A DNA stretch of 64,000 bases from Zootoca vivipara (GCF_963506605.1 NC_083287.1:18476001-18540000), one strand, 5' to 3'. Positions 10,812 through 41,800 are shown, numbered from the stretch's first letter. Numbers and translations are program-made. The notes: generated from the letters alone by a model not told the origin.

Positions 10812-11081
<270 letters not shown>

Positions 11082-14065: not shown

Positions 14066-14233
<168 letters not shown>

Positions 14234-32481: not shown

Positions 32482-33220
32482 CAGTGGTGGCGAACCTATG
32501 ACACGCGTGTCAGACGTGACACGCAAAGCCCTCACTGCTGGCACGCGCCCCATCGGCCCATTCACGCTGTTGTTGTTGTCCCCCCCCCATTTGTTCTCCC
32601 GCTCCTCCTACAGCTTGTCTCCGCTACAGCTTGTCTCTGCCGTTAAAACCCATAAAACCCAGATCCGTTTTTGTTGTTGTTGCTGCTGGTAACTAGATTG
32701 GTTTTTTAACCCTTTCTGTGCTTTTTTCCTGGCACTTTGGCAGACTATGATTGGGTGCAACAGCGTTTGTTTTTAACCTGTTCTGTGCTGGGTTTTTTTG
32801 CGCTTTGGAAGACTAGGTCGGTGCTGCGTGTTAGTTCCAGCGAAGGTATTATTTGTCATTTATTTCTGTTCTCCCCCCCCAAAAAAGCACAGCAGCTTTG
32901 GGGCATCCCCCCAAAAAAGCAAAGCAACTTTTGCACCCCCCCCAAAAAAAACCTCCAAAACTTTGGTCAGCAGCTCCCCCCCAAAAAGCTCAACAACTCT
33001 GGGCACTTTGTGATAAATAAGGGTTTTTTGGTTTGGTTTGGTTTGGTTTGGTTAATTAATTAGTTTTTGGTTTATTAAATACAGTTATATATTACAATTA
33101 TACATTTTTGTTATTTAAACTATAAATATCACAAAATTATGGTTTTTTCTCGAAGTGACACACCACCCGAGTTATGCTCGGTTTTTTGACACACCAAGCT
33201 CAAAAGGTTGCCCATCACTG
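32482..33220. mobile_element. Non-autonomous hAT element (hAT1-like)
   Basis: TIRs CAGTGGTGGCGAACCT / AGGTTGCCCATCACTG; subterminal GACAC motifs; TSD ATCTAGGA. Confidence 0.88.
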
Positions 33221-33721
33221 ATCTAGGATCATCAATCTATTTACACTGATGCTGTACTTCCTATGACCAACAATTCATATTACTCTAATTTAGAATTATC
33301 ATACAAATATTATAGCTATATGTATTAAATTTTATATCAACTCAGAAACTAGAGACCCGTTACTTTAATGAAAGAAAAGTTAGTCTCTGCAAAACAGGAA
33401 CTTATAAACTTCATGCATTTAAGTTTCCCCTCTTCAGCAGATCATTGCACTATGCTCAAGAGGCCATAGGATTAAGGCCATTGATCCTGTGGGTGCTGTA
33501 TATTTAAACTCTTCTGCAGCTGAATTTAGGTTAAGGCTGACTATAGGAGGAGACATTTTTAAAGACAAAAATATCGCAAGTGAAATGTCAAAGAAGAGTG
33601 TGATAAAAAATATCAACATACATAGCCAAAATAAATCTGTATGATGCAAAAAATTTAAATCATGCCGCTGTTACCAGAATGTAGCATAGTACTAAGGGAT
33701 ACATACTTTATACCGGTATCT

Positions 33722-33930
33722 ACAAAGCGCTTTATATCATATAATATAAAGCGGATTGTGGTAGGGCTGTTAAGAAATTTAGCTTAGGGTTTGGTTTGTG
33801 TAAGGCCACAGCTCATGCTGAGTAATGGGGGGCGTGTGTATGCAAATTCCTTGGATCTGATTGGTTGGTGGGGCCCCTCTTAAAGCTGCGTCCACCATTT
33901 TCTGGTCACATTTTTGCCTGGCGTTTGAAC
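33722..33930 (+). repeat. Split direct repeat A1 (209 bp)
   Basis: Identical by eye to 40725-40933. Confidence 0.95.
33815..33902 (+). promoter_or_regulatory. Putative Pol II promoter within repeat A
   Basis: TGCTGAGTAA, GC box GGGGCGTG, octamer ATGCAAAT (33840-33847), CTGATTGG (CCAAT box), CTTAAAG near 33880, CCATTTT. Confidence 0.55.
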
Positions 33931-34816
33931 TGTGTGTTTCTATCGGTTCCTGTCTGGCAAGAGAGCGTTCCTGGATTCCTGGAGTCTGGTTGTATCTGGC
34001 TTATTTAATTTGCTGATTTATTCAGCTTATTGCTTGCTTTTGATTTTTAGCTTTCATTTACTGCCTTATTTAGCTCCGTTTTGATTCTCCCCCTCCCCTC
34101 CCTCCCCACTCCCTTCCCCTACGGCTCGGCCTCGGCTAGGGGCGTTGGGAGTCCCCCCCCCCCGCACAGGCATCCCACTTTATTTAAAGGGCGCACCCCC
34201 CTTTAGATTCCTTTAAATTCTTTAAATTCCCCCCCCCGCTTGCCTTGGCTAGCCTGCTGTGGCTCTTGGTGGGCAAGGGGGCCTTGGTACCCTGAGGGAG
34301 CCTTGGCTCCTGGCTCCTTGCCTGGCCGTTTTCCTGCTGGGGCTGGGCTGGGCTGGGCTGGAGCCACGTGGGTGGTTAATAGGGCTGTTGCCGGCTGAGG
34401 AGCATTGAGGCTGCTTGCGCTCTGCTGGGGGCCTCTAATTTGGCTTATTGGGGGCTGTGGCGTTTGCCGCCCCCCCTGGGGTGCCTGCGGGGTGGGGGTG
34501 CATCATTGGGAGGGCGCCAGGCCGTTATTGTGCCTGGTTTGCACGCTGCGTCCGCCATTTTAATGCTTGCAACCCCCTTTGCTATTAAGCAGAGAGCTGC
34601 TGCTTGTGCATTGGGGGGAGCGGTTTGAGGGGGGTTGCTGGGTCTTTAGGACCTTGGGAGGGGGTCCCCTCACTTGATTCACCTGGGGGGCCTCTAGTTT
34701 TTGTGTCCTGTATAGCGTTTGTTTTCTGTTTGCATCTGTTTTAGCTGAGGAAAATTTTTTTTCCTGGCTGCAGTTTATTTCGAGGCTTGAGTGCTTGCAG
34801 CCAGTTTCTGGGCGTT

Positions 34817-34850
34817 TGGCGCCATCTACTGGCCACGAGTTGTTACTACA
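34817..34850 (-). promoter_or_regulatory. Putative CTCF site (core plus upstream motif)
   Basis: Minus strand TGTAGTAAC-N6-TGGCCAGTAGATGGCGCCA. Confidence 0.55.
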
Positions 34851-35648
34851 CCTACAAATTTAATTGCCTTTTCCCTCAGCCTATATTGAAGTCCCTTGAG
34901 CAGGCTTTGACTTTATTGTGTTGCCTGACTAGCTTATTGGGTCATTTTAACTTATTGGTTTCCTTTAATTACTTGATTTAATTTATATCCTTTTATTTAG
35001 GAATCTTAATTGATTCCATTGGATTATAATTGGCTTTGACCTGCGTGGGCTTGCTTTGGTTAAGTGAAAGGAAAAAACTTTTACTCCTTGCCTTTAATTG
35101 GAGGCCTGAGTACTGCAGCCTACTTTAGGTTCTCTATGCCATCGGCTGGCCTCAAGGGGGTTATCGCACCTTGTTAGTTTTGATACTGTTCCTTCCCAAT
35201 AGATAGGGAATACATTGCTTGGCCTGCGTTTTGGGTTTCTTGCATTGTTTAATTGGCTTAATTGATGTCCATTGTTTAATTCAATTTAATTTTAATTCAC
35301 GTTAATTTAGTTTTCACGTATTCTGGTTAAGGATTCTATTTGGTTGCGTGGGTGGGAGTTTGGCTTTGGCCTGCGCATTTCCCTCTCCCTCCCTTTTAGG
35401 GGGGGGGCCGGGGCGTGTGCCGGGGTCCGGCCTACACCAGCCTGCAATACAAGTCTAACTGATTTCCCTGGGGCCTTTCAGAGGCCTGGGTGTCCCCAAA
35501 TATTTTGCAGTTAGTTTTGCAGATTGGTTGGGAAGGCTCCAATATTTGAGGGGTGGGGTGACGCCGCCTAGTGGTTAAAGTGGTAATACGCACCCCTGTG
35601 TGATTCCACGTGTGTTTGCTTGTTATTCCAAGTAGTTAATAGTTCAGG

Positions 35649-37332
35649 ATGGCGGCCCACCCATCCACTTCAGGGAAATCTAAGAGGGTCATTAAGGGCG
35701 CTTCGCAGAAGCTGCGTTCGCCAGCCTCGCAGGCAGCGGGTCGCGTGGAAGCATTCATCGCTAGCATTGCTGGTGACCCACAGGCCCTGGCCCAGCTTGG
35801 ATCTGGGCTTGATGCCTTATTACAGAACCCGGCCTCTCATCCTGCCGCCTCGACCTCTGCTGGTTTACCTCTGGAAGCAGGGCGGGAGGCGGCGACTACG
35901 GCCATGCCTCCAGACCGGCAAGGCCCAGACCCTCTTTCTGCCCCCTCTACCTCTGCAGGTGTATCCCTGGACCCTGGGCAAGCTACGGTGGCGGCGTCGC
36001 AGCCTCTGTCCCCCATGGCGACCATTCTGGGACTGCCTGAGACCACCACGTCTGGGCCAGTTGACTCGTCGGATGACGACTTCGTGGGGCCTTCTGGTGT
36101 TCTGATGCCGAATGCCTCTTCCACTCCTATGGTGGTGCCGGCGCCCCCTCCCGTCAAACGACGAAGTGAGGGGAAGCAGCCTCGGCGCACCAGGAGGGCG
36201 AGGCAGGCTAAGGGCAGAGTAAGTGGGCAAGGGCAGGGGGGGGCGGACGGGGGCCTCCTCTAATGTTGTTGTTTCGCCCGTTGCTCCATCCCAGACTCTT
36301 GCCGTCGCCTCGCGGCGCGAGGGGCTTTCGTCGGCATCCGGCGAGGAAGCCCTCCCAGTGCCGGCTAGAGCGTCGAGTGGCGGAAAACGTCGTCACAAAA
36401 GTCGTTCCAGGAGGCGGGCAAAGAGGCGCAAGGACGATACCTCGGCTTCGACCACCTCAGGTTCGTCCTCTAGCTCCGAGGGTTCTGATCACTCTATGGG
36501 GTTGTACTGGGCTTACGGGGAAGTGGATTCTGGCCTTCCTCGTTGGGCCTGGGCTCGTCGAGCGAATTCGCATCGTGCTCGTTATGGAGCTGTTCAAGAA
36601 TGTCTCGACGGAGAGTTGGTCCCGGAAACCACGGTTTCCACCAACAGTACTAGGGATATTATTCCGGGCAGTCACTTGTCCTCTAAATTGAGGTCTAGGA
36701 TATTGGATGGTAAATAGGTAGACATTTTTGATTTAGCTCCACCAGAGGAGGTGGTCCCTGAGCAAGAAAACGCCCTCGTTGGTACTAAGAAGAAAGGCAG
36801 GGGGAGAAAGGTGGAGCGGACTTTCGAGCGTTGGCTCGATTGTTATCAAGTTTTTTCCGGGGTAGTAGTAGCGGCATATCCCCGCAGGGCTCTACACCTT
36901 ATCGTGTACCAGTCCATCGTAAGGTCAGCATATAACATGGCAGGGGAAGCGGCCGCAATTGCTTCTGATGAAAGATTTCGCAGGCGGGCGTCAAAAATTG
37001 ACACCGCCCGCTTTGACAGGAAAGACTTGGACCTTTGGACCACGTATGTGGCTCCGTCGGTTTCACGGAAACCCGCCGAGCAGCAAAGGGCTGAGACCCA
37101 GCCTTTTAAGGCGGCACCTAAATTGCGCTGCTGGGATTTCAATAAAGGACTGTGTCAGCGCCCGCGGTGTATTTATGCGCACACTTGTGACCGGTGTGGC
37201 GGTAGCCACCCGGCTGTTAACTGCTATGCGGGCCGGCGGCCCTTTCGTGGGGGTCGGGGAGGATTCAGGCAGGCGCCAAGGGGTTCCGCCCCTGCCCTCC
37301 CCGCTCCCCCCGCAGCTTCCACATCAAAGTGA
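35649..37332 (+). pseudogene. Ngaro gag-like ORF1, disrupted
   Basis: ATG at 35649; frameshift near the G8 run at 36236-36243; TAG at 36715-36717 in GK*VDIF; C-terminal zinc finger CWDFNKGLCQRPRCIYAHTCDRCGGSHPAVNC followed by RGG repeats. Confidence 0.82.
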
Positions 37333-38494
37333 ATTGCTTCAGTTAGCTTTTTCTCCCATTAAGTTACCGGCCCTTAAACATTGGTTAGCCTCCTATCCCA
37401 ATATTGAGGCGGCTGCATATCTTCGGGATGGTTTCTCCTTCGGGTTCCGGATTCCGATAGCTTCGGTTCCCCTGGCTAGGAATCCTAGGAATCAGAAGTC
37501 GGTGAGAGAGATGCACGAGGTCGCAAGGCGGAAGGTTAATAAAGAAATAGCCCTCCAGCGCATGGCTGGTCCTTTTGCGTCTCCGCCTTTTCCCAATCTG
37601 CACCTCTCTCCCTTGGGAATCGTCCCCAAGAAGGCTCCGGGTGAGTTTCGGCTCATTCATAATTTGTCTCACCCTAGGGACACGTCCGTGAACGACGTGA
37701 TCCCTCCGGAGCTTTGTACGGTCAAATACGCTTCTCTCGACCAGGCAATTAAAATGATCAGAAAGTTTGGGCCGGGGGCCTTGTTGGCAAAATGTGATAT
37801 CGAATCGGCTTTCCGATTATTACCAATTCATCCGCATGATTTTTGGTTGCTGGGCTTTCAGTTTGAAGGCGCCTATTATTTTGATAAGGCCATGCCAATG
37901 GGCTGCTCCGTAGCCTGTGCGGCCTTCGAGCGCTTATCGCAGGGTGAGAAGGCTGACATGAGGATGTGGCTGGTATTCCTGGAGGAATACAATGGGGTAT
38001 CCTTGTGGCAGGATGTTTTAAACCTGCACAACGATTTCCAAGTGCACTCCGATGCGGCGGGTTCCCTGGGATTTGGTTTGTTTTGGAATGGCAGGTGGTG
38101 CGCACAAAGATGGCCCCCTGCTTGGCGGGACACTGAAATCACGCGGGATTTAACTTTTCTTGAGTTCTTTCCTATAGCAGTTGCAGTCCATATTTGGGTT
38201 GACGACTTCAAGGACCGCCGCGTATGCTTTTGGTCAGATAACCAGGCTGTGGTGACTGTCCTTGCGAAACAATCTTCTAAGTCAACTCGGGTATCGGCTC
38301 TGCTGCGGGCATTCGTGCTGCAGTGCCTGCGTTTTAACATTATTTTCTCTGCGCGTTTTGTCCCGGGCGTGGCCAACGATATAGCTGACGCTTTGTCACG
38401 ATTTCAGATGGAGCGCTTCAGGTCCCTGGTTCCAGACGCACAACATCAGCCGGAGATTTTCCCGGATCGTCTTTGGAACCTTGGCAGCTGCTAG
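36959..38494 (+). pseudogene. Ngaro reverse transcriptase/RNase H with in-frame deletion of the RT catalytic region
   Basis: SPLGIVPKK..FRLIHNLS, AKCDIESAFRLLP and MPMGC present, but no YxDD; RNase H motifs SDA, LEF, SDN and ADALSR intact. Confidence 0.9.
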
Positions 38495-39387
38495 TCTTGC
38501 AGGGAGTAGCTGCTTCTGTTTCCCCCTCTACCCTGCGGGCTTATCAAAAAGCTTGGACTGACTTTTTAACTTTTCGCAGTCAGTCGCTCGCGGTGGAGGG
38601 AGCGGCCCGCCCCTCTTCTTCCCAGGTGCTTCAATATTTGGCACACCTGTTTCACCTGGGAAGGGCTGCCAGGACCATAAAGCTCCAGTCTGCGGCCATT
38701 TCATTTTTCTCGAAATTGTTTTTTAATAGGGACCCTTGCGCCAAATTTGTGGTGCGTAAGGCCATGGAGGGATGGGGTAGGCCTTGTCCTCCCCGTTCCC
38801 CTACCAGGAACCCGATTTCTTTTGATCTTCTCACTAAAATGAGATTGAAGCTTAGGGTGGTGTGTTGGTCTAAATATGAGGCCCGTTTGTTTTCGGCCGC
38901 CTTCTCAGTGGCCTTTTTTGGCGCTTTGAGAATTGGTGAAATTGTAGGGGGTCAGATGCGTCAGGGGGTGCCAGGGGGTTTGCTACTCCAGGACATACGT
39001 CTGTCGCCAACGGAATTGTTAATCACGATTCGGAGTTCCAAGACCGACCAGGCTGGTAAAGGAGCAGTAATGCGACTGCCTGCTACGGGGCAGACGGGCC
39101 CCTGCCCGGTTAAGGACGTAGCCAAATTCTTGGCGGAAAGGCCAGCTGGGGAGGGCCCCTTGTTTGTGCATCAGGATGGTAACCCGATGACTAGGCTGCA
39201 ATTTACTAGAGTTATGAGGAAGGTGATAGCGGCATGCGGTTGCGTGGCCGCTAATTACGCTCCTCATTCCTTTCGCATTGGGGCCGCCACTACGGCGGCC
39301 CACTGGGGTCTTTCGGTTGATGCTATTAAGGATTTGGGCAGGTGGAAATCTGCAGCGTATAGATCTTATGTTCGGAAGCGCTCCTAA
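38473..39387 (+). CDS. Tyrosine recombinase (start uncertain, no ATG)
   Basis: ALRIGE (R), SKTDQ (K), HSFRIG (HxxR), LGRWKS (W), YRSYVR (Y); N-terminal STLRAYQKAW. Confidence 0.92.
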   Translation: MEPWQLLVLQGVAASVSPSTLRAYQKAWTDFLTFRSQSLAVEGAARPSSSQVLQYLAHLFHLGRAARTIKLQSAAISFFSKLFFNRDPCAKFVVRKAMEGWGRPCPPRSPTRNPISFDLLTKMRLKLRVVCWSKYEARLFSAAFSVAFFGALRIGEIVGGQMRQGVPGGLLLQDIRLSPTELLITIRSSKTDQAGKGAVMRLPATGQTGPCPVKDVAKFLAERPAGEGPLFVHQDGNPMTRLQFTRVMRKVIAACGCVAANYAPHSFRIGAATTAAHWGLSVDAIKDLGRWKSAAYRSYVRKRS

Positions 39388-39396
39388 CTTTGTCGT

Positions 39397-39993
39397 TTGT
39401 TTTCCAATGTTTTCCCAGGGCTCGCGGACGTGCACATATGGATGGTGGGACATTCCATAGTCCATTGGGCAGGCCTTCGCGCTGGCCAAACGCCATTGGG
39501 TCCTCGACTTGGCCTTCCATCCAACATCCAAGTGACCTGGATGGGCAAGAGGGGCATGCGCTGGGGGGAGCTTCTCCCTTTGCTGCGGCGCAAAGCCCTC
39601 TTGCTCGGGTGCCCGTCCGCCCTGGTGATCCAGCTGGGAGAAAATGACATCCCCGCTGTGGACCCGTTATCTCTTCGCCTGGCTATCCTACGAGATTTGT
39701 TGGAGATAAGGACTTGGTTCCCTGATACCGTCGTTTTTTGGTCCCAAATGTTGCAGAGGATGCAATGGCGGGGTGATATTCCTCCTCTGGCTGGGGAAAG
39801 AGCTAGGAAGAGGGTTAACAGCGCAGCATCCAAACGGGTGTACGAAATCGGGGGGAGTTTGATTCGTCATCCCGCAATTAATGTTAGAGCCCCGCTTTTA
39901 TATCGGGATGATGGGGTTCACTTATCCCCTGATGGGTATGACATTTGGCTGCGTGATGTGTCTGAGGGTTTAAAAAGTTGGTTAGGTCTCTGA
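39397..39993 (+). CDS. SGNH/GDSL-family hydrolase (start uncertain, probably spliced)
   Basis: Block I VGHSIV, block II GKRG, block III LGEND, block V DGVH. Confidence 0.88.
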   Translation: MFSNVFPGLADVHIWMVGHSIVHWAGLRAGQTPLGPRLGLPSNIQVTWMGKRGMRWGELLPLLRRKALLLGCPSALVIQLGENDIPAVDPLSLRLAILRDLLEIRTWFPDTVVFWSQMLQRMQWRGDIPPLAGERARKRVNSAASKRVYEIGGSLIRHPAINVRAPLLYRDDGVHLSPDGYDIWLRDVSEGLKSWLGL

Positions 39994-40022
39994 GTGTTGG
40001 CGGCAAGCCAGGGCTGGCTTGA

Positions 40023-40728
40023 TTGGCGGTTAGGCTTTTGGTTGGTTAATCGGTTGGTAGAGGGGGTGGCACACGGATGCCTACCCTCACCTCCGTTTGC
40101 TCCATATAGAAGTATTCCGTTAAAGGAATCTCGGGGCTTACACTCTTGTCCTTACCATCCCGCCATTGGCGGGAATGGTGGGCCCAATTTTAAGAGCAAG
40201 AGCCTTGAGGAACATTCTTGGTGAAGGTGAGGAGGGAATGACTGGGCGCAGCCACCTCCTCACTCCCAGGTATGTTTACTTGACTTCCATGCGGAAGTCG
40301 GAGCAGGAACTGTCCAAGCGGACAGTGGTGAGTCCTGTCCTATGGTGACAGCTGATGTGAGTCCTGCCACGTGGGCAGATGAGGTGAGTCCTGTCCAATG
40401 GTGACAGCTGATGTGAGTCCTGCCACGTGGGCAGATGAGGTGAGTCCTGTCCAATGGTGACAGCTGATGTGAGTCCTGCCACGTGGGGCAGATGAGGTGA
40501 GTCCTGTCCTAAGGGGACAGCTGATTGAGTCCTGTCCTGGATGGACAGATGGGGATAGTCCTTCTTTAGGAAGGACGAGTGAATAACCAAAAGCCTAAGC
40601 CAACACTCGGATTAAATTGTGTATTTAATAAAGTTGTGGCCCTAAATTATTTGCCAAAAACCAAACCATAATTCTGTTGTCAGTTGTGAGTTATTTAAGG
40701 TAATTTTCTGGGAAGCCTCGACACACAA
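40023..40728 (+). repeat. Split direct repeat B1 (706 bp)
   Basis: Identical by eye to 41095-41800 (offset 1072); AATAAA at 40627-40632. Confidence 0.95.
40309..40576 (+). repeat. Tandem hairpin array in B1 (alternating 29/27-bp units, 56-bp period)
   Basis: Repeated GTGAGTC-CTGYC-loop-GRCAG. Confidence 0.9.
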
Positions 40729-40933
40729 AGCGCTTTATATCATATAATATAAAGCGGATTGTGGTAGGGCTGTTAAGAAATTTAGCTTAGGGTTTGGTTT
40801 GTGTAAGGCCACAGCTCATGCTGAGTAATGGGGGGCGTGTGTATGCAAATTCCTTGGATCTGATTGGTTGGTGGGGCCCCTCTTAAAGCTGCGTCCACCA
40901 TTTTCTGGTCACATTTTTGCCTGGCGTTTGAAC
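40725..40933 (+). repeat. Split direct repeat A2
   Basis: Copy of 33722-33930; overlaps B1 by ACAA. Confidence 0.95.
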
Positions 40934-41094
40934 CCCTCCCACCCGCCCTTTCTTTCTTGCAGGTTAGCACGACATTGCTATTGCCTTCGGGGCCGCCTGT
41001 ATTCAGGGGTCAGTAGGAATTTTTCCAATTGGCTGATTGGCTGTGCCTCTTGGTTTTCGCCTACTGCGCTAGCAAATTGTCACAACTTGTTAGG

Positions 41095-41800
41095 TTGGCG
41101 GTTAGGCTTTTGGTTGGTTAATCGGTTGGTAGAGGGGGTGGCACACGGATGCCTACCCTCACCTCCGTTTGCTCCATATAGAAGTATTCCGTTAAAGGAA
41201 TCTCGGGGCTTACACTCTTGTCCTTACCATCCCGCCATTGGCGGGAATGGTGGGCCCAATTTTAAGAGCAAGAGCCTTGAGGAACATTCTTGGTGAAGGT
41301 GAGGAGGGAATGACTGGGCGCAGCCACCTCCTCACTCCCAGGTATGTTTACTTGACTTCCATGCGGAAGTCGGAGCAGGAACTGTCCAAGCGGACAGTGG
41401 TGAGTCCTGTCCTATGGTGACAGCTGATGTGAGTCCTGCCACGTGGGCAGATGAGGTGAGTCCTGTCCAATGGTGACAGCTGATGTGAGTCCTGCCACGT
41501 GGGCAGATGAGGTGAGTCCTGTCCAATGGTGACAGCTGATGTGAGTCCTGCCACGTGGGGCAGATGAGGTGAGTCCTGTCCTAAGGGGACAGCTGATTGA
41601 GTCCTGTCCTGGATGGACAGATGGGGATAGTCCTTCTTTAGGAAGGACGAGTGAATAACCAAAAGCCTAAGCCAACACTCGGATTAAATTGTGTATTTAA
41701 TAAAGTTGTGGCCCTAAATTATTTGCCAAAAACCAAACCATAATTCTGTTGTCAGTTGTGAGTTATTTAAGGTAATTTTCTGGGAAGCCTCGACACACAA
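41095..41800 (+). repeat. Split direct repeat B2 (hairpin array at 41381-41648; AATAAA at 41699-41704)
   Basis: Copy of B1; ends in ACAA. Confidence 0.95.

Follow-up and report, generated by a model that had tools for sequence, protein, structure and literature searches.

An unfixed Ngaro-type retrotransposon insertion in Zootoca vivipara that lacks the reverse transcriptase active site and was likely copied in trans

RESULTS

Structure of the element

The window analyzed here is a stretch of 64,000 nucleotides from Zootoca vivipara (GCF_963506605.1 NC_083287.1:18476001-18540000), in which positions 33722 to 41800 hold a tyrosine recombinase retrotransposon, inserted antisense into an intron of a gene that we take to be UBE2E2. 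Split direct repeats in the order A1, B1, A2, and B2 accompany a leader, a gag-like gene, and frames for reverse transcriptase (RT) with RNase H, tyrosine recombinase, and SGNH hydrolase, and a spacer (C) separates A2 from B2 (Table 1). We are highly confident in reading this copy as a recent, unfixed insertion of the Ngaro type, which has neither the RT active site nor an unbroken gag and for which intact relatives likely provided the copying machinery in trans.

The repeat structure given in an earlier note on this DNA, comprising 209-bp A repeats and 706-bp B repeats without mismatches, a 1.7-kb leader, and a 161-bp spacer, was recovered in full. A1 (33722-33930) and A2 (40725-40933) were identical at 209/209 positions, and B1 and B2 at 706/706. 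In these lengths, a 4-nt ACAA is counted in both kinds of repeat, which is the element's own only at the B ends; A proper measures 205 nt, and the ACAA in front of A1 is host target sequence. Identical repeat pairs were frequent in the family, with neither pair differing in 14 of the 21 complete copies. The complete repeat set was present in 21 of 29 close copies that bear a body, and 8 of the 29 stopped after B1. Relative to its flanks, the element was rich in GC and CpG, with a CpG observed/expected ratio of 0.7-0.9 in its coding part vs 0.3 outside.

Coding frames and assignment to the Ngaro type

The gene order proposed in the earlier note (gag, RT/RNase H, recombinase, SGNH) held, as all frames were found and had weak Pfam matches, while the RT deletion and the gag breaks described below had been overlooked. 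The matches of the window frames to RVT_1 (0.005), Phage_integrase (1.6e-5), and Lipase_GDSL_2 (4.3e-5), as well as that of the recombinase N-terminus to a SAM-like domain (2.6e-4), were all below the curated cut-offs. In an undeleted sister copy, the RVT_1 match was above the cut-off (9.5e-12). The recombinase frame contained the series R-K-H-R-W-Y, which we take to be the catalytic residues of a tyrosine recombinase.

The element combined direct repeats in the layout A1...B1-A2-B2, a tyrosine recombinase rather than a DDE integrase, gag-like and RT/RNase H open reading frames (ORFs), an SGNH ORF, and no methyltransferase. Inverted terminal repeats with an internal complementary region, as in DIRS1-like elements, were not found, since the ends carried only direct repeats and the inverted pairs were internal and 23-25 nt long. 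A methyltransferase domain is given as a PAT-like feature (PMC4157794, PMC7192593). After the end motif of RNase H, only 30 aa followed in the window element, which leave no room for such a domain, and the corresponding tail measured 27-51 aa in 100 of 101 homologues from squamates, amphibians, and others, so that the whole clade appears to be without it. It is very improbable that the element is of PAT type and has lost its methyltransferase, even though PAT elements have the A1-B1-A2-B2 layout in common with it and a Pat1 lineage without methyltransferase has been reported in C. briggsae (PMC4157794): the short tails extend over the entire clade, and an SGNH frame after the recombinase has been described for amphibian Ngaro (PMC9210276, PMC7192593). 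Judged by these structural features (PMC9210276, PMC4157794, PMC6681497), the element is a Ngaro-type retrotransposon of the hydrolase-bearing kind; the tree described next was built without labelled references.

The closest named RT proteins came from lacertids (Zootoca vivipara and Podarcis muralis, 68-82%), followed by other squamates and then amphibians. The RT/RNase H tree of 27 rows (23 of 120 hits and four loci, of which L053 was less than half filled), which held no labelled DIRS1, PAT, or Ngaro sequences, contained a squamate clade (97/94) with a lacertid subclade (100/100). These nearest proteins, together with at least 29 close body-bearing copies, bear out the earlier attribution to an active squamate family. 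A DIRS1-like outgroup was also sought in the same genome via the Pfam family Dam (PF05869); no match was obtained, which says nothing about absence.

A branch-point-like CTAAC overlapping the recombinase stop codon, a pyrimidine tract, and CAG|G (39384-39418) were kept in an older family (L052, L053, L055, L056, L058), in which the acceptor motif was retained although the reading-frame relation was not. The SGNH protein is likely made from spliced RNA. The first ~120 codons of the recombinase frame were without Met, and expression of the recombinase may need splicing or frameshifting.

Lesions and their distribution among sister copies

The RT/RNase H frame of the window copy had no YxDD motif and carried a 441-nt in-frame deletion (147 codons) at 37930/37931. 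Compared with an undeleted sister, residues 337-483 were lost, among them the YLDD at residue 358. Gag was broken by a frameshift in a G-run near 36236 and by a premature TAG at 36715-36717. Neither an intact RT active site nor an intact gag, which together would define autonomy, was present. With its RT core deleted and its gag broken, the copy does not support any reading of it as competent; going by its sequence, it cannot move itself.

The distribution of these lesions was followed with a probe for the deletion junction (40 of 73 candidates scored) and an RT search (40 of 226 candidates scored). The deletion was present at at least 8 loci, as 8/8 full-length matches of the junction probe carried it, and at least 21 further close copies kept the RT without deletion. 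The eight deleted copies lay at 8 different loci with unrelated flanks and were united by nine small diagnostic changes and an additional minisatellite unit. They fell into two groups separated by ~24 substitutions. In the first, the window copy, L021, and L022 differed by 1-2 substitutions and had the gag breaks in common; in the second, L023-L027 differed by 0-3 substitutions and had an open gag. The two near-identical sisters of the window copy agree with the recent insertion that the earlier note had proposed. The 1-2 changes in 7 kb could be explained by copying errors alone, and no age was assigned.

Because the same deletion occurred at 8 loci and the same gag breaks at 3 near-identical loci, the lesions predate the insertion, and by this comparison the RT-dead lineage was amplified more than once. 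Helpers exist in the family, since 10 of the 21 undeleted copies had the full repeat set and four open frames. The non-autonomous lineage was likely mobilized in trans by such intact family members; RT acting in trans has been reported for DIRS-1 (PMC7192593). We give hardly any credence to an insertion of the window copy as an autonomous element that decayed in place. The open recombinase, SGNH, and RNase H frames and the perfect ends would suit such decay. It would, however, have to explain why the 441-nt deletion recurs at 8 loci and both gag breaks at three that are 1-2 substitutions apart, and it survives only if gene conversion spread the lesions among loci.

Mobilization in trans would have proceeded as follows. 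A founder would have lost 441 nt of RT, probably via template switching between the two near-repeats GAGTGCTT and GTGCGCTT, between which the deletion lies. It would then have split into the two sublineages, each of which was re-amplified lately (5 and 3 copies), one of them after the loss of gag. Since its ends are intact, RNA of the window copy would be a substrate for Gag and RT from helpers; a B2|A1 junction would be produced with the internal B1|A2 junction as template and then joined by the recombinase to a host RNAA site. Splicing was rejected as the source of the RT deletion, as none of the registers that the junction permits places an AG at the end of the deleted segment.

In L023-L027, the recombinase has a T-run near window position 38718 that was longer by 3 or 6 bases, in frame, in four of the five copies; the fifth was frameshifted.

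Empty alleles at the insertion site

The earlier note had suggested a possibly polymorphic insertion and predicted an empty site with a single ACAA. That sequence was found in contigs, and the empty allele occurred in other runs of the species as well as in a related species (organism B). Contigs from X1 (S1) and X19 (S15) matched the window from 41797 onward through the right flank, and their remaining end corresponded to window 33692-33721. X5 (organism B) had the same empty-site join, with a small difference upstream. In X15 (S12) and X18 (S14), a 1134-nt contig was equal in length to that of X1, departing from the window sequence at 33725. Between the element-bearing and the empty allele, no base was lost or gained. 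The insertion is thus not fixed.

Two runs were not counted as empty, namely X17, whose contig runs 26 letters, left unread, past 33725 off the A1 path, and X4, which was uninformative. For X5, no contig lay on the B end at 88% likeness, which proves nothing. The contig depth of the leader relative to that of the flank (16.7, 14.4, 11.9, and 11.2 for X1, X15, X17, and X18) is not a copy number and was not used. Unfixed insertions labelled 'Dirs' are known from anoles, where one table lists 6873 of them, at low frequency (PMC7561263).

X1 was flagged as a possible source of the DNA, yet shows the empty form, and the source animal would be either heterozygous or a different animal from X1. Every listed contig across the site, X1 included, was of the empty form, as would be expected if the element were an assembly error and the site were empty in all animals. 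We regard such an error as highly unlikely. The position of the element coincides exactly with an RNAA 4-mer, its ends are those typical of the family, nothing was gained or lost vs the empty allele, and its nearest sisters are 1-2 differences away; the contigs are explained if the source animal was heterozygous or a different one.

Ends and target sequence

The ends of the family were surveyed at 50 loci, four of which had no 5' end of their own and two no scored 3' end. The 3' end was ACAA in 48/48 scored ends. Among the 4-mers before A, ACAA occurred in only 8 of 46, while A was found at -2 in 45/46, A at -1 in 41/46, and a purine at -4 in 41/46, so that the host target pattern, as read from these ends, is RNAA. 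At L035, five paralogous host repeats carried a 4-nt core like the 5' one (CAAG three times, CAAA, and GAAG) and not ACAA. A 4-bp target duplication was rejected on these grounds. Because the 3' core is constant, the 5' 4-mer variable, and the L035 paralogs 5'-like, the host 4-mer appears to stay at the 5' side, with the element supplying its own ACAA at the 3' side. By the same comparison, the ACAA at both flanks of the window copy is partly a chance match. No end carried a remnant of mixed overlap, and the ends fit a single crossover point 3' of the host RNAA 4-mer.

Predicted hairpin at the B|A junction

The B|A junction was predicted to fold as a long imperfect hairpin (z -6.3 for the sense and -5.6 for the antisense strand; 0/200 shuffles as good), in which the crossover falls where a 5-bp helix meets a 2x2 loop. 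A family ~70% identical had matching hairpin architecture at its natural junction. Over six rows, 22/22 pairs were kept, of which 4 were changed on both sides, and slid controls dropped to 31-52% paired. Older solo ends paired likewise in the 16 cases with both ends recognized (z -2.3 to -7.2), the other 24 of 40 being excluded as not recognized.

The predicted fold suggests either integron-like single-strand integration or an RNA signal. For the integration step itself, we prefer one strand exchange at the folded junction, as in integrons, and hold this to be quite conceivable, though short of probable. In integron attC sites, structure is conserved, a short microhomology at the crossover is needed, and one exchange takes place (PMC4792948). 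A broader proposal, by analogy with these sites, is more doubtful: Ngaro elements would integrate in the manner of integron cassettes, with the recombinase reading the folded single-strand B|A and making one strand exchange 3' of the host RNAA, and any RNA with intact ends could then parasitize the family, including RT-dead and gag-dead copies and perhaps 1-kb A-spacer-B units. The asymmetry of the element ends fits a single-strand route, nothing more.

On the other side, the hairpin may be an RNA signal formed only at B1|A2, which would suppress 3' processing at B1 such that the transcript runs to B2, and integration would then proceed from a conventional double-stranded circle, the overlap being very short. 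We consider this about as plausible as the folded-junction exchange. An identical AATAAA lies in B1 and B2 (40627 and 41699), ~75 nt upstream of the hairpin, folding is more stable for the sense than for the antisense strand (-22.6 vs -18.0 kcal/mol), and a double-stranded-circle model has been described for DIRS-1 (PMC7192593). Because the one-sided pair changes are G-T wobbles on the sense strand, RNA or a sense-strand fold suits better than minus-strand cDNA. The crossover, however, lies exactly at the helix/loop border in both families, and the missing mixed-overlap remnants and the element's own 3' core at every scored end are at odds with an overlap. The roles of RNA signal and recombination site are not exclusive.

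Solo, tandem, and variable parts of the family

A search for A-C-B units scored 40 of 3111 candidates, and 20 loci were fetched: 16 held a solo A-C-B unit and one held two in tandem, one further solo had a cut A, and the remaining two were truncated at the 5' end. Two solos and the tandem pair were identical to the window's unit, and six identical solos had no identical full copy among the sequences compared. These units hint at direct movement of solos. The 26-nt C-B motif had 333 exact matches, whereas the B|A junction had 24 and the body-B junction 28. An argument that solos move by themselves because they outnumber full elements 13:1 was rejected, as 37 of 40 C1-C2 matches belonged to older families and only 3 of 40 were >=95% like the window's unit. 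The C1-C2 sample comprised 50 listed matches, of which 9 were already included, 1 was left out, and 40 were new; both ends were recognized in 10 of the 40 for the tree, and the other 30 were excluded.

The tandem pair at L062 (G000:C3:25994398-26004320) had the order A-C-B-A-C-B and can formally be regarded as a miniature without genes in which the repeat layout is complete. At L034 and L033 (G000:C2:27637742-27656146), two full elements stood head to tail with one common ACAA junction, which would represent a dimer or an insertion into an element's own end.

Several parts of the element varied among copies. Close copies (L037, L038, L042, L044, L047), with 3' halves 97-98% identical, carried, together with the window copy, several leader types that could hardly be aligned to each other. 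This variety of leaders resembles the promoter swaps of L1. The ~56-nt minisatellite differed by whole units among subfamilies (B ~592, 647, and 702 nt before the core), and its unit number was always equal between B1 and B2 within one copy. The start of B (40030-40052) formed a 23-nt inverted repeat (83%) with 40576-40598, just before the AATAAA of B. The spacer and the C-B border (41020-41120) were strongly conserved among families otherwise 70-80% identical.

Host gene context

The placement inside a UBE2E2 intron made in the earlier note was upheld. Because three UBE2E exons are encoded on the minus strand at lower coordinates than the element (Table 1) and the preceding UBE2E exon is at G000:C12:18587804, the element is intronic, in an intron of ~97 kb, and antisense. 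A second UBE2E gene lies ~185 kb downstream, in which D replaces E in a shared motif; the name UBE2E2 for the window gene is our assumption from this second gene and the human gene arrangement. A high-copy repeat (32875-33227) ends ~500 nt to the left of the insertion.

The earlier note had also stated that the antisense orientation keeps the splice and poly(A) signals of the element out of the host pre-mRNA. By crude motif counts, this held for the splice signals, with 1 acceptor-like and 2 donor-like motifs in host sense vs 5 and 12 on the element strand, and failed for the poly(A) signals, as 5 AATAAA motifs were present in host sense, a density of 0.62 per kb vs 0.67-0.90 in the flanks. 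A large effect on UBE2E2 is unlikely, and the single insertion probably matters little for the host gene.

Table 1. Positions of the element, its parts, and the neighboring exons in the window
Feature	Position	Strand	Basis or remarks
Host target 4-mer ACAA	33722..33725	+	Once in empty-allele contigs; 5' 4-mer varies over 46 ends; L035 paralogs; family pattern RNAA
A1 repeat, 205 nt (209 with 4-mer)	33726..33930	+	Identical to A2
Leader, 1.7 kb, T-rich, no internal ORF >=100 aa	33931..35648	+	ORF scan, copy comparison
gag-like gene, C-terminal Cys/His finger, broken	35649..37332	+	Most sister copies have a single open frame of 562 aa
RT/RNase H frame, stop to stop, 441-nt in-frame deletion at 37930/37931	36923..38494	+	RNase H motifs retained
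Tyrosine recombinase frame, open	38389..39387	+	R-K-H-R-W-Y motifs at 38923, 39037, 39265, 39334, 39358
SGNH hydrolase frame, open	39388..39993	+	S, N, D/H motifs; predicted splice acceptor, AG ending 39418
B1 repeat; ~56-nt minisatellite 40327-40562; AATAAA 40627; ACAA at end	40023..40728	+	
Predicted hairpin of the B|A junction; crossover 40728/40729, at 2x2 internal loop	40705..40780	+	
A2 repeat	40729..40933	+	Identical to A1
Spacer C, 161 nt, acceptor-like AG ending 40962	40934..41094	+	C-B border strongly conserved in older relatives
B2 repeat, ends in the element's own ACAA (41797-41800)	41095..41800	+	
UBE2E2-type exon, 133 nt, downstream of host intron	14078..14210	-	
UBE2E2-type exon, 148 nt	10892..11039	-	
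UBE2E2-type last coding exon, to stop codon	7738..7835	-	

DISCUSSION

Several points weigh against the account of a recent Ngaro-type insertion copied in trans and integrated at a folded junction. The filled allele was in none of the contigs listed from 7 runs (contigs drop variants), and the insertion was seen in the assembly only. The paralog test of the empty site was possible at one locus only, L035. The tree, built from unlabelled sequences, shows a squamate grouping alone, and the life cycle of the element is read from DNA. As to the hairpin, the covariation represents two independent sequence types in six rows, and the structure was drawn from the same sequences; the four double-changed pairs were reached by 77 of 500 shuffles, and the three one-sided changes are all sense-strand wobbles.

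The literature at hand on the Ngaro cycle is model only, and the experiments concern DIRS-1. Literature searches turned up no paper naming squamate Ngaro in its title and none joining tyrosine recombinase retrotransposons with the terms integron, single-stranded, and hairpin; the accessible text of PMC7192593 covers Ngaro, hairpin, junction, and recombinase, yet has no mention of 'integron'. The lizard family is moving now in an amniote, with unfixed insertions and open-frame helpers beside RT-dead dependants. Both the target rule and the crossover point are resolved to single bases, its 76-nt junction and 4-nt target would provide a defined substrate for recombinase integration, and its insertions could be used as presence/absence markers in populations.

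Among known systems, the hydrolase-bearing Ngaro-like elements DIRS-53_XT and DIRS-54_XT of Xenopus (PMC9210276) are alike in their layout A1-[gag, RT/RNase H, recombinase, SGNH]-B1-A2-B2, in the identical repeats of young copies, and in having no methyltransferase. The RT/RNase H of the lizard family was 48-49% identical to uncharacterized Xenopus proteins, although these hits bore no Ngaro label. The lizard family differs in its lacertid host, in a B of 590-706 nt with a minisatellite vs 152 nt in DIRS-53_XT (PMC9210276), and in its exchangeable 1.7-kb leader, and the window copy differs in being RT-deleted and gag-broken. Ngaro 1-4 of Cafeteria burkhardae (PMC8547959) likewise have split direct repeats, solo AB repeats, and internally deleted variants that spread; an ORF1 deletion and a target change are described there, whereas here the RT core was lost and the targets are alike in all groups.

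The trypanosome elements SIRE and VIPER (PMC6681497) also include short A2-spacer-B2 units apart from their parent, whose mobility is an open question there, but superfamily, gene order, and host differ. DIRS-1 of Dictyostelium (PMC7192593) is a tyrosine recombinase retrotransposon with an internal copy of the end junction, for which RT acting in trans and single-stranded cDNA have been described. It has inverted repeats, an internal complementary region, and a methyltransferase domain, and a trinucleotide is said to flank both of its ends, while in the lizard family the match extends over part of a 4-mer only.

Integron attC sites (PMC4792948; 10.1101/2022.09.11.507474) resemble the lizard junction in outline, with an imperfect hairpin, predicted in the lizard case, whose structure is kept more than its sequence, a short microhomology beside one crossover point, and many genomic targets. 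This likeness is an analogy only, drawn from fold and ends, and the lizard element is not a member of that system. If the integron-like reading were true, the lizard family, with its unfixed insertions and base-exact empty site, would offer a testable vertebrate case.

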